A stretch of 64,000 nucleotides of DNA, from NCBI RefSeq assembly GCF_056746865.1, contig NZ_CM163382.1; one strand, given 5' to 3'. The position numbers were made by a program. This document shows positions 21,001-24,000 of this stretch, piece after piece. Positions within the stretch are counted from its first letter, which is position 1. Each line of letters begins with the position of its first letter.

Positions 21001-24000
21001 CCCGACGTTTTTTGATTTTCCCCTGATATGATTTACGTGCCTGGCGAATTTTTGTTCCCACTGAACCTGCGTGAACACTTTGCCCTCAGCCATCCAGTAA
21101 TCCCGGAATGCAGCAAGTTCAGCAGGTGTAAATTCCGGTTCCGGCAGGGCCGTTCCCCACAGCGCAGCACGCCGTCGAAAATCCGGCGACGGATGCCAGC
21201 CATCGGTCATCGGAAATTTCCCAATAGGTTCACTCAGGCCATCCAGAAATGCAGGTTCTGCCACCTGCAACGGCGTACCGTTCGCTTCACTGGTCGGAGC
21301 ACCCTCGCGCACGTGCGCTATGTGTGGGGTTTTATATATATCTTCCTCTTCCTCTTCCTCTGGTAACTCCTTTTGTAACGCTGTTGGCGTTACTTTTTGC
21401 GTTACTCGTTTTCGATGCTCTGCCACTCTTCTATTCGTAAGTGCACGTTTTTTCGATGATTCTCCATTATGTCGCTCAAAGTTTGGAAGAATTAGTTTGC
21501 CGTCATGATAAGCAAGCCATCCGACGCTAATGAGGGCGTCAGCAAATCCTGTAATAAAAGCGAGTCTATCAAGTACTCCTTTTGTAACGCTGCCAGCGTT
21601 ACCGTCTATTGTTTGCTGGTCAGCCCATGCCCATATACGAACCAGCTTTCCAAGAACAGCATCTGGATCAATACCCAGAATTTCTGCTATCTGAAAAATT
21701 TCAGGTTTATCAGGAGTGATAACTTCAACCTTAATCCAGCTGCTTGCCATAGGTTTCCCCTCTTGCACTCTTTAGTGCACAAGCAAATTCATTACGATGG
21801 CGGTTGGCGCTATTCATTGCACATTCAACACATGTTCCGTTCAGAACATACCTTTCAGAGAGATGGCCGTGACGGCACCGCTTTCCTGTGAAATAGCGAT
21901 TTAACCCGGCTTTTGCGGCCTCCATTCTGGTTACTATCTTCAATTTTTCCGCCCCTTTTTGTTATTGATATTGGCTATTTTGCACAATTGGAAAATTTGA
22001 TCAACCAGATTTGGTTTTTTATTACCTTTGAGGTACGAATAGATATGAAAAGACCGCCGGGTGGCGGTCTACAGAGGGTTGTAGCTGGATATCATGAGTA
22101 GAAGAAGTATGCCAGTTCTGCTTTTGAGCGCAGCCATTGTCTTGTTTTACAGGCTTTAAAAAGCCCATTCATCAATACCTTACCTGGCATTTTGCGCTTG
22201 CCTGTTAAGTGAGTCTGGATATAGTGACTCGTCGTTCCGGCTTCCTGTGCGAAGGCTTCACGCTCATCCGGAGTAAGTGCAAGCCAGTGCTTTTTGAAAT
22301 CGAAATGTCCGTTATCGCTCATAGCTATTGCCTGATATTTATTTCAGATAATAAATATTCACCCATAAGGTAACAAAAATCAAGGATGGTTACCTATGAG
22401 GTGCATTTACCTGTTGGGTAATATTGCTTTAAATTGAATCATCTACTGATTCATATATGAGGCGATTTTCCAGAAAATGAAAAGTATCCAGGACGTCCGC
22501 AGGCAAAATCTCAACGACTTGATCGACCGTGAATTCAATGGTGTTCAGACGCGGATGGCAGAAAAACTTGGAACTCAGGCAAATCTGGTAAACCGCTGGG
22601 CTCTTGGCAAGAAGGTTATCGGCGACCAGGTTGCGCGAAAAATTGAAGCTGCCGCCAATAAACCCCGTAACTGGCTTGATATCGATCGCTCGCTTTCTCA
22701 GGAAGGTTTTCAGCCTGTCGGCCCAAGCGACATTGGTCAGCTGGCGGCTCACAACCTGGAACGCTGGATGAGCGAAAGCCGCGACCTTTCAACACAGGGA
22801 AAACTTCACCGCGCATCCGGCGTCGCCCAGGTGACAATCAGCCGCCTGTTAAACAATGAGGTCAGCGTTTCCATTTCCACCCTGGAGAATGTTGCATCCG
22901 CATTCGGGCGTCACGGATATGAACTACTGATTCACCCGCACGACCCTGCGACTATCAACTATGACCGCTCACGCTACGCATTGTTACCCGAAACCGAGAA
23001 AGCAAAGATCGAAAGTTACATTGAATTTGTCATCAACCAGAACGAAAAAAGCAAACAATAAAACTATATTTTTCAGTAAGTAAGCCGCCTCATGGCGGCT
23101 TTTTTATTGCCTATACTATTACCTAATGGGTAATTTTTTTAACTCATATCTATTGACATCAAACCAAATACGCATAATTATTACCTAAACGGTAACAGAC
23201 CGAGGTAACAAGTTATGCAGTGGAAAATCATCAACGGTTGGTACTGCGTTACTGCATGCGGATTCATGAGCTGGAAGTTCCGCACCTTACAGGAAGGCAT
23301 TAAGTGGGCTTTCGTCAGCAAAGAAGCTCGCGATGTGGCCAACGATAACGAGATATGGGAGTAGGTTAGCAAATGAGTGAATTATCAATCATCGAAATCA
23401 CACCAGACATGGCACCAAGAATTTACGTTGAAAAAGGGCTGGAAAAGTTTCTCGAGCAGATCCGTGAAGGTGTTAATGAAGTGCCTGACATTAGCACAGA
23501 CAAAGGCAGAAAGCGCATTGCATCTCTGGCTGCGAAGGTTTCAAGAAGTAAAACAGCGGTAGAAAAACCAGGACGTGATTATCTGAAACGCCTGAAAGAA
23601 CAGCCGAAAGTAGTTGAAGCAGAGTTACGACGCTTCGTAACCGAATGCGATCGGCTTCGTGATGAAGTACGCCGCCCACTCACCGAGTGGGAAAATGCTG
23701 AGAAATTACGCACTGAAGCACTGCAACAACGCCTGACAAATTTGCGAGCACTAGCTGACGTGATCGATCTCTCCGGAAACTACTTGCCATCATCTGATAT
23801 TCAGGAACGAATTCAAGAGGCTAAATCAGTAGCACTTGATGAAAGTTGGCAGGAGTACGCAGCAGAAGCTGGAGTAGCCAAGGATTCAACCATCAAGAAA
23901 CTGGAAGAATCACTCGCAGTAGCTCAAAAACGCGAGCATGAAGCCGCTGAGCTGGAGCGACTTCGCAAAGAAGCGGAGGAAAAAGCGCGCATTGAGCGAG

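Follow-up and report, generated by a model that had tools for sequence, protein, structure and literature searches.

The closest described relative of the immunity system considered here is that of phage SPC32H, in which the repressor, Rep, reportedly remains uncleaved upon induction of the SOS response, and a small antirepressor, Ant, is said to dock on the C-terminal domain of Rep; a point mutation in the LexA box before ant is likewise said to have made the sister phage SPC32N constitutively lytic. Immunity can also be controlled by antisense RNA: in the immI regions of phages P1 and P7 the c4 antisense RNA and the a1b1/a2b2 sites are followed by icd-ant1/ant2, and in phage P4 the CI RNA goes with seqA/seqC. 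Here, the repressor and antirepressor genes of a prophage were analysed in a stretch of 64,000 nucleotides of contig NZ_CM163382.1 (assembly GCF_056746865.1), which is called the window. The switch of this prophage is probably best explained by a Rep of the SPC32H type, a small Ant gene with a LexA box outside the window, and a fusion protein, AntA::Ant, which is gated by RNA and encoded beside the integrase gene int. For SPC32H, it has been shown that Rep binds DNA as a tetramer and that an Ant tetramer binds two Rep dimers, breaking the Rep tetramer (PMC9638917), with Ant being made after self-cleavage of LexA and inhibiting the repressor through protein-protein interaction (PMC7380047). In Gifsy-1, the antirepressor AnrP is switched on by the short terminated RNA IsrK, which acts in trans on the read-through mRNA, and phage production by stationary-phase cells in minimal medium depends on the isrK promoter (PMC4825925); part of the discussion of that paper treats the antisense systems of P1 and P4 (PMC4825925).

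Prophage DNA makes up the left ~30.3 kb of the window, and its integrase end adjoins guaA. This is a phiV10/epsilon15-like prophage (Uetakevirus) inserted at guaA, with the integrase-proximal ~30 kb inside the window. Its immunity region is 98-99% identical to those of the Escherichia phages phiV10, TL-2011b, ZX5 and HEMP4 (genus Uetakevirus), its synteny with SPC32H (KC911856) is complete, and the 3' end of guaA is also the integration site of ZX5 (PMC9782041). The repressor region was found in 561 of 5426 complete E. coli genomes. The prophage of E. coli A357 is 99.3% identical and was used to reconstruct the DNA to the left of the window, and the RefSeq annotation of A357 and ZX5 gave the gene order: int, antA where present, methylase, PerC, AlpA, RecT, exonuclease and further genes up to rep / cro, followed by replication, terminase, head, injection proteins, small genes, tail fibre and lysis. 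In the alignment, position 1 of the window corresponds to position 3591 of A357 locus L003, within the injection-protein genes, and therefore the last ~10 kb of the prophage lie outside the window.

Rep is a maintenance repressor of 194 amino acids encoded on the plus strand at 22477-23061 and identified by Pfam, PHROG and PDB matches. Two stretches of Rep match Pfam HTH_3 (helix-turn-helix, HTH), the strongest match being at residues 106-147 (E 1.2e-9), and residues 20-61 give HTH matches of the YdaS/DUF739 type. A sequence search of the PDB matched residues 1-190 to 5D50_A ('Repressor'; E 3.5e-42) and residues 89-190 to 5D4Z, the isolated C-terminal domain (E 3.6e-20); the 5D50_A homologue consists of two HTH-like domains and nothing further. 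In a tblastn comparison with KC911856, Rep is 42.7% identical to SPC32H rep over 99% of the gene, and it is 99.5% identical to the repressors of phiV10 and ZX5. By homology to the PDB entries, the N-terminal DNA-binding HTH domain covers about residues 1-72 (22477-22692) and the C-terminal HTH-like domain about residues 89-190 (22741-23046), and the latter, by analogy with the SPC32H literature, would serve for oligomerisation and Ant docking and not as a second reader of DNA. It is highly probable that Rep belongs to the SPC32H type, a non-cleavable family, and that the Rep/Ant assignment is correct.

Nothing was found in favour of a proteolytic inactivation of Rep, whether through cryptic autocleavage or through a partner protease of the ImmA type. 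No Pfam match to Peptidase_S24 was obtained in Rep, even at E<=1, and its translation has no Ala-Gly or Cys-Gly dipeptide. Judged by its sequence, Rep is not a member of the autocleaving repressors of the LexA/lambda-CI type, with their S24 domain, Ser/Lys dyad and Ala-Gly site, and its C-terminal half is HTH_3-like; autocleavage is very unlikely. As for a partner, no COG2856/M78 metalloprotease of an ImmR/ImmA-type system is annotated in the equivalent prophages, where the only annotated protease belongs to the cluster of capsid genes, where it adjoins the gene of the major capsid protein, and none is annotated beside rep or in the early regions; in the window, the neighbours of rep are a cro-like gene and a small open reading frame (ORF). 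The Rep of SPC32H is put out of action by binding of Ant and not by cleavage (PMC9638917, PMC7380047). Inactivation by proteolysis is, for these reasons, extremely improbable. An earlier note on this DNA had described a 194-residue repressor with an N-terminal HTH and a second HTH-like segment, which agrees with the ORF and the two Pfam stretches, although the second of its 'two HTH regions' is of HTH type and, in the SPC32H structure, an oligomerisation and Ant-docking domain rather than a DNA reader. The same note saw no S24-type signature and proposed a hidden Markov model search for it, which has now come out negative, and its view that RecA-stimulated autocleavage is unlikely is strengthened by the homology to 5D50_A over the full length and by the precedent of SPC32H.

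How the SOS response would reach such a repressor is answered by the SPC32H precedent, and this part of the switch is therefore ordinary. In SPC32H, ant lies at 19676-19936 of KC911856, with the injection-protein genes on one side and the tailspike gene on the other. At the counterpart locus of A357, an ORF of 85 amino acids (L003 9368-9625) matches the antirepressor chain 5D50_E with E 6.6e-47. Twenty bases upstream of it sits TACTGTATATTTATACAGTT, the sole strong LexA site of that locus. It is a perfect box and scores 27.4 bits with a 20-nt weight matrix whose training set, 19 LexA boxes of E. coli, itself scores 12.7-26.8. The equivalent boxes of ZX5 and SPC32H score 27.4 and 25.4 bits, respectively, and the pattern expected before a small ant gene in the genome of the window is TACTGTATA(T/A)(T/A)TATACAGT(T/A). 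The segment with ant and its LexA box was found in 528 E. coli genomes, compared with the 561 that have the repressor segment. The small Ant is 87% identical between the E. coli prophages and SPC32H. From the A357 alignment, the small ant locus is predicted about 5.8 kb beyond the left edge of the window. It is also observed that Rep is only about 43% identical between the E. coli prophages and SPC32H, yet the small Ant is 87% identical, an asymmetry between two binding partners.

The SOS route is most likely this small ant gene with its LexA box, cut off by the edge of the window, as judged from the near-identical prophages. DNA damage would act through the LexA-boxed promoter to produce the 85-residue Ant, from a gene flanked by those for the injection proteins and the tail fibre; Ant would then dock on the C-terminal HTH-like domain of Rep, the domain which would also oligomerise Rep, and Rep would remain uncleaved during SOS induction. 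Phage ZX5, with a Rep that is 99.5% identical, has the small ant gene and lacks the antA cassette, and mitomycin C raises the titre of this phage from 1e7 to 1e9 PFU/ml (plaque-forming units per ml) (PMC9782041).

The window itself contains no comparable SOS site. The pattern CTGT-N8-ACAG, with at most one mismatch, has 20 matches in the window against 21.7 expected, and none of them falls in 28006-28329, upstream of antA; the weight matrix gives nothing above 10.6 bits over the 64 kb, and its best site upstream of antA scores -2.9 bits. These results bear on the AntA-domain protein at 28330-28980, which the earlier note had correctly recognised (PF08346, E 8e-28, and PHROG 377) and for which it had seen no CTGT-N8-ACAG box upstream, as both the pattern and the matrix confirm. 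Its remark that the entry of SOS into induction was unclear holds for the window, where no SOS site is present, and no longer holds for the system, given that relatives have the known SPC32H-type answer in a separate ant gene with a LexA box. The SOS link through the AntA gene that it implied is not the likely one: ZX5 is inducible without the cassette, the LexA-boxed ant is a separate gene, and the cassette is rare and apparently controlled by RNA. An AntA::Ant protein that is the SOS-responsive antirepressor, by way of a non-canonical LexA site or of indirect SOS control, would be favoured only by the position of its gene in the prophage and by its annotation, and it is very improbable in view of the matrix scores, of the induction of ZX5 and of the dedicated LexA-boxed ant gene in the relatives.

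The spacer of 324 bp upstream of antA holds a series of RNA elements, all on the plus strand. A promoter-like site, TTGACA-18-CATACT, at 28078-28107 matches 10/12 positions and is kept in A357 and in strain 2015C-4944. It is followed by a leader (28108-28164) in which a putative decoy hairpin (28108-28134) precedes a terminator-like hairpin with T6 (28137-28164). Next comes an RNA of the sRNA-Xcc1 family (Rfam RF02221; sRNA, small RNA) at 28200-28289, which covers the full model (1-87) and scores 64.8 bits against a gathering score of 53. Its candidate antisense element consists of the hairpin-2 loop CUGUUUGU (28254-28261) and of CUAGUU (28265-28270), and an ACCA past the closing stem (28282-28285) may hint at processing from the leader transcript by RNase P. 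The putative antisense target, AACTA-AAA-ACAAACAG (28305-28320), abuts the Shine-Dalgarno sequence GGAGG (28320-28324) before the ATG at 28330, and the loop of the decoy hairpin, ACTAG-AAA-ACAAACAG (28114-28129), would be a decoy copy of this target. Indeed, CUGUUUGU is the exact complement of both copies of ACAAACAG, the one at the ribosome-binding site (RBS; 28313-28320) and the one in the upstream decoy (28122-28129), and the predicted duplex energies of hairpin 2 are -19.2 kcal/mol with the antA leader and -25.7 kcal/mol with the upstream copy.

In strain 2015C-4944, the loop reads CUUUGAAG and both the RBS site and the upstream site read CTTCAAAG, which means that all three have been replaced together; despite this three-site replacement, the aligned region of the two cassettes has a mean column identity of 97%. 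Phage HEMP4 shares this CUUUGAAG/CTTCAAAG specificity. No site resembling the candidate operators of Rep described below (TTACC-N5-GGTAA, at most two mismatches) was found upstream of antA, nor was a LexA-like one. Direct control of the cassette promoter by Rep is therefore unlikely, and neither LexA nor Rep appears to control antA on this sequence evidence. An antA gene placed behind an sRNA-Xcc1-family RNA, with a loop complementary to the RBS region and to a decoy, appears to be new.

The homologies, motifs, co-variation and genomic distributions were observed directly, and the binding and regulatory steps that we infer from them would be as follows. The RNA loop would pair with the ribosome-binding region of antA and keep translation of AntA::Ant off in the lysogen. 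The short upstream transcript would titrate the RNA and relieve this block, opening a route of induction that is independent of SOS. A superinfecting relative with a different loop specificity would escape this control, and the variable loop would give the cassette an immunity specificity of its own. By analogy with the systems named above, we lean towards AntA::Ant being a second, SOS-independent antirepressor input that is gated by RNA.

The protein itself, a fusion of 216 amino acids encoded at 28330-28980 on the plus strand from the ATG at 28330, matches Pfam, PHROG and 5D50_E. The AntA domain (PF08346, E 8e-28) covers residues 21-90 (28390-28599), and the product also matches PHROG 377, 'anti-repressor Ant'. 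Residues 135-211 (28732-28962) form a domain like that of SPC32H Ant, which aligns in a sequence search with residues 3-79 of 5D50_E (E 1.8e-13) and is 40% identical to the small Ant of E. coli (E 2e-19). Across the small Ants, including that of SPC32H, and the fusions, 30 alignment columns are invariant. The kinship of the C-terminus of AntA with the crystallised Ant, which appears to be a new observation, is proposed from sequence comparison. A homologue search with the AntA protein returned almost only near-identical proteins, of little use for a profile. AntA::Ant is a domain relative and not an orthologue of ant: it is a fusion of 216 residues with no LexA box, and not a stand-alone LexA-controlled protein of ~86 residues.

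Next to their small ant gene, A357 and ZX5 both have a gene for a Bro-N protein, ORF4 in ZX5, whose C-terminal domain is nearly identical to that of AntA::Ant. Overexpression of ZX5 ORF4, described as an 'anti-repressor', lowered lysogens from 1e9 to 1e6 and cut rep mRNA by 75% (PMC9782041). The complete int-proximal cassette (28006-28990) is present in only 22/5426 E. coli genomes. Both full-length cassettes that were inspected, those of A357 and 2015C-4944, lie beside int at guaA, in prophages with this Rep, and among isolated phages the whole cassette was found only in HEMP4. From its sequence relationships, AntA::Ant may plausibly act on the same Rep as a second, accessory antirepressor that is dispensable for SOS induction.

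Parts of the cassette also occur elsewhere. The antA leader and the AntA N-domain (window 28070-28644) are ~84% identical in many Stx1- and Stx2-converting phages (Stx, Shiga toxin), such as VT2-Sakai and the PA series. These matches span the first 58% of the query only, and the C-terminal third was not found there. The leader and the AntA N-domain may travel together and be combined with one effector domain or another.

The gene of the sister protein, Bro-N::Ant, is preceded in the relatives by Rfam isrK and C4 elements (L003 9101-9285, minus strand, in A357; L002 1821-2006 in ZX5). The three-site logic could be seen by eye in this leader as well, with ACTAAGTGG within isrK, the loop CCACTTAG within C4 and CTAAGTGG at the RBS. 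An exact Rep-operator-like site (L003 9322, A357) is observed just upstream of this isrK/C4 cassette; the Bro::Ant cassette may, on this motif, be under the control of Rep, unlike the AntA cassette of the window.

The generality of the RNA element was evaluated by scanning viral contigs with its invariant core, which gave 120 loci with 102 distinct variants. For 71 distinct loop/leader combinations, the mean duplex energy was -10.55 kcal/mol for cognate pairs versus -6.81 kcal/mol for non-cognate ones, and 0/2000 permutations reached the cognate mean. The viral variants have 58 different pairing sequences between them. In most cases, 9-11 nt separate the end of the target from the start codon, and a second block, further upstream, is also seen. 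Pairing of at least 7 nt between the upstream decoy and the RNA of its own locus occurs in 91% of the variants, versus 26% for non-cognate pairs. The genes downstream of the viral sRNA-Xcc1 RNAs always encode modular antirepressor-type proteins, with N-domains of the P22_AR_N, KilA-N, AntA, ORF6N or Bro-N type and C-domains that are P22_AR_C, ORF6C, SPC32H-Ant-like or unassigned. The literature notes sRNA-Xcc1 upstream of an ORF6N gene in APSE phages; a description of sRNA-Xcc1 as a c4-like regulator was not found in a literature search of incomplete coverage.

Several observations count against the switch as drawn here. The small ant ORF and its LexA box are both absent from the window and were placed here from relatives, and the ant region found no counterpart in about 6% of the genomes that carry the repressor region. 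The Ant-like domain of the fusion shares no more than 36-40% identity with the small Ant, which leaves room for a different target. An AlphaFold2 model from a shallow alignment of 14 sequences has a predicted local distance difference test score (pLDDT) of 69.8, with a confident N-domain and a weak C-domain, and a Foldseek search of this model against the PDB gave no match at E<=0.001, which might be due to Ant being known in oligomeric form only (a tetramer in the solved complex; PMC9638917). The overexpression results of ZX5 concern the Bro::Ant paralogue under strong artificial expression. With respect to the RNA, Rfam C4 (RF01695) and isrK (RF01394) gave no match at E<=1 in 27950-28400, where only RF02221 was found, and the likeness to the C4/isrK cassettes is one of architecture and not of family membership. 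The sign of the regulation, repression versus activation, is taken by analogy. The viral variants are kin by descent, so the permutation statistics overstate their independence. Finally, in the literature on Xanthomonas and Xylella, sRNA-Xcc1 is regarded as an sRNA that acts in trans and is linked to virulence.

Some of these points fit an AntA::Ant that does not act on the resident Rep, and that targets the repressors of other prophages or has an N-domain with another job, such as DNA binding or host takeover, the Ant-like domain being in that case merely an oligomerisation module. Such a role would agree with the modest identity to the cognate small Ant, with the pairing of the same leader and AntA N-domain with other C-domains in the Stx phages, with the many different C-domains of the Xcc1-type cassettes, with the cross-acting antirepressors documented in Salmonella (PMC7380047) and with the dispensability of a cassette that is complete in 22 genomes only. 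It is nonetheless unlikely, though the least so of the alternatives considered here: 30 positions are invariant with the crystallised Ant that binds Rep, both inspected full-length cassettes stand in prophages carrying this Rep, and in ZX5, a phage with the same Rep, ORF4 with its nearly identical C-domain caused a shift away from lysogeny (PMC9782041).

The literature on the family, in turn, would suit an sRNA-Xcc1-like element that is an independent trans-acting sRNA, or a mere structured 5' untranslated region, with a complementarity to the antA leader that has no regulatory meaning. In Xylella fastidiosa, five copies of sRNA-Xcc1 occur in tandem, about 380 bp apart, and such arrays speak for this possibility. 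Still, it is quite improbable, given that the loop, the RBS site and the decoy are replaced in concert between cassettes that are otherwise about 97% identical, that cognate pairs are far more stable than non-cognate ones in the 71 variants, that the target usually ends close to the Shine-Dalgarno sequence, 9-11 nt before the start codon, and that the isrK/C4 cassette of the sister Bro::Ant gene follows the same logic. The tandem array of Xylella does, however, not readily fit the rule of one RNA and one downstream antirepressor gene that is seen in the viral contigs.

Preferring a gating RNA and a fusion directed at the resident Rep, we consider it an evenly balanced proposition that the sRNA-Xcc1 of phages is, in general, a c4-like immunity RNA that gates modular antirepressors, and that one Rep has up to three Ant inputs. 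These inputs would be the LexA-gated small Ant, the isrK/C4-gated Bro::Ant and the Xcc1-gated AntA::Ant. In each Xcc1-type cassette, the hypervariable loop, the matching RBS site and the upstream decoy would gate translation, and the N-domains would combine with interchangeable C-domains that bind repressors. If this is true, RNA-gated extra copies of the antirepressor would provide phiV10-like prophages, which are found in about 10% of the complete E. coli genomes, with induction routes that are independent of SOS and with a second immunity specificity of the 'immI' type; phiV10 itself features in the literature on phage engineering and on the detection of O157. The Stx-converting phages share the RNA leader and the AntA N-domain, and the idea of an antirepressor with multiple inputs is relevant there. 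Induction of Stx phages is tightly linked to toxin production (PMC4315091). A role as cis-encoded antisense regulator, if true, would change the interpretation of sRNA-Xcc1 in Xanthomonas, Xylella and integron cassettes.

Candidate operators of Rep lie around its own gene. The palindrome TTACC-N5-GGTAA was spotted by eye and then searched for, which gave 14 matches with at most one mismatch versus 1.1 expected; seven are exact copies, all inside the prophage. In the spacer between rep and the divergent cro-like gene (22092-22322, minus strand; 76 amino acids; PHROG 35 'transcriptional repressor', E 4.9e-12; in the position of SPC32H_042), candidate operators lie at 22359-22373 (one mismatch), 22390-22404 (two mismatches) and 22407-22421 (exact), and the rep-cro spacer of SPC32H has three sites of this motif in matching position. 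On the other side, rep is followed by an intrinsic terminator (23082-23108, plus strand; an 8-bp stem with 6 GC pairs, then a T-run) and by the region of a putative early-left promoter (23119-23195, plus strand), with the -35 element TTGACA at 23153, a 17-nt spacer and the -10 element AATTAT ending at 23181. Its candidate operators are 23119-23133 and 23181-23195, the second of which overlaps the -10 element, and the layout of the same region in SPC32H is as in the window. Both SPC32H and ZX5 have the motif at syntenic positions, among them a pair spaced by 62 bp that follows the replication genes and a single site in front of int, and the putative recognition helix (Q/A-NLVNRW) is kept between the Rep of the window and that of SPC32H. 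It is most likely, as far as motif and helix allow, that the N-terminal HTH of Rep reads the TTACC-N5-GGTAA operators flanking rep. The first gene 3' of the early-left promoter is an ORF of 49 amino acids (23215-23364), hypothetical in ZX5 and 2015C-4944, and a small hypothetical ORF stands at the equivalent place of SPC32H.

Sites of the same motif were also seen away from rep. An exact pair, 62 bp apart (20058-20072/20120-20134), lies in the spacer between a replication gene and a DUF1064 gene, and pairs with the same 62-bp spacing are present at 23119/23181 in the window, at 35972/36034 in SPC32H and at 16109/16171 in ZX5; this spacing may suit a Rep tetramer that bridges two sites. A third promoter of the early-left design is found at 12795-12837, with TTGACA and then an exact operator, TTACCTTTCAGGTAA, over the -10 region. 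It faces a tRNA gene at 13160-13233 (Rfam tRNA, 71.7 bits; tRNA-Arg in relatives) and a small ORF, and Rep may control this phage tRNA. The operator-like ATACCTTTAAGGTAA (one mismatch) at 30305-30319 is located ~45 bp upstream of the start of int, between int and guaA, and is kept in ZX5 (8026) and SPC32H (26960); it is possible that it serves the control of int by Rep or that it is an element of the attachment (att) region. Two more operator-like sites, 18 bp apart (15967-15999), lie just upstream of the small-terminase gene region, and another (22022-22036) is found past the terminator (22051-22070, minus strand) downstream of the cro-like gene. The integrase gene (29012-30262, minus strand) is convergent with antA, at the end of the prophage beside guaA (30455-32032, minus strand), the host gene flanking this end. 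The chromosomal part of the window contains the host sRNA sroE (Rfam RF00371, 116.6 bits) at 51736-51827 on the minus strand, which is ordinary.

When compared with known systems, the locus shares features with several of them. Phage 186, with Tum, and the Fels-2 and Gifsy phages also combine a non-cleavable repressor with a LexA-repressed antirepressor that is encoded far from the immunity region, but their Ant fold and repressor family differ, the homology of the window being specifically to SPC32H. The immI region of P1/P7, P4 and the isrK-STnc1160-orf45-anrP region of Gifsy-1 have the same succession of elements: a decoy close to the promoter, then a structured RNA, then a target at the ribosome-binding site of the antirepressor gene. 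As between P1 and P7, the loop and its target change together between relatives, and as in the c4-type cassettes of P1, the closing stem is followed by ACCA and the product has an AntA domain. The element upstream of antA ends in a terminator like IsrK, and is analogous also to a1/b1 of P1 and to seqA of P4. In contrast to P1 and Gifsy-1, the RNA of the window scores as Rfam sRNA-Xcc1 and not as C4 (E<=1), and there is no upstream ORF of the icd/orf45 type, the target directly abutting the RBS of antA; unlike in P1, the effector domain is an Ant of the SPC32H type, and the repressor is unrelated to the C1 of P1.

Phage ZX5 (vB_EcoP_ZX5) is the nearest relative with overexpression data: its ORF21 repressor is 99.5% identical to the Rep of the window, the C-domain of its ORF4 is nearly identical to that of AntA::Ant, and the overexpression phenotypes fit a repressor/antirepressor pair (PMC9782041). 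In contrast to AntA::Ant, ORF4 has a Bro-N N-domain and is located beside the small ant gene, behind isrK and C4 RNAs, in a phage without the int-proximal AntA cassette. The 2022 paper on ZX5 mentions neither SPC32H, nor LexA, nor the small ant gene (PMC9782041). The likeness to the Rep/Ant system of SPC32H (PDB 5D50, 5D4Z) extends to the homology of Rep over its full length, its two-domain layout without S24, the operator motif and its positions, the synteny of the genomes and, in the near-identical E. coli prophages, an Ant of 85-86 amino acids (87% identical) with a LexA box, at a locus by the tail-spike or tail-fibre gene. The two differ in that the Rep of the window is only 42.7% identical, that its own LexA-controlled ant is expected outside the window, and that SPC32H has the small Ant alone, whereas the lineage of the window adds Ant-domain fusions behind structured RNAs and not behind a LexA box, AntA::Ant beside int and, in relatives, Bro-N::Ant beside the small ant. 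At its core, the system belongs to the known Rep/Ant switch of SPC32H, a connection that was not made in the 2022 paper on the almost identical phage ZX5.

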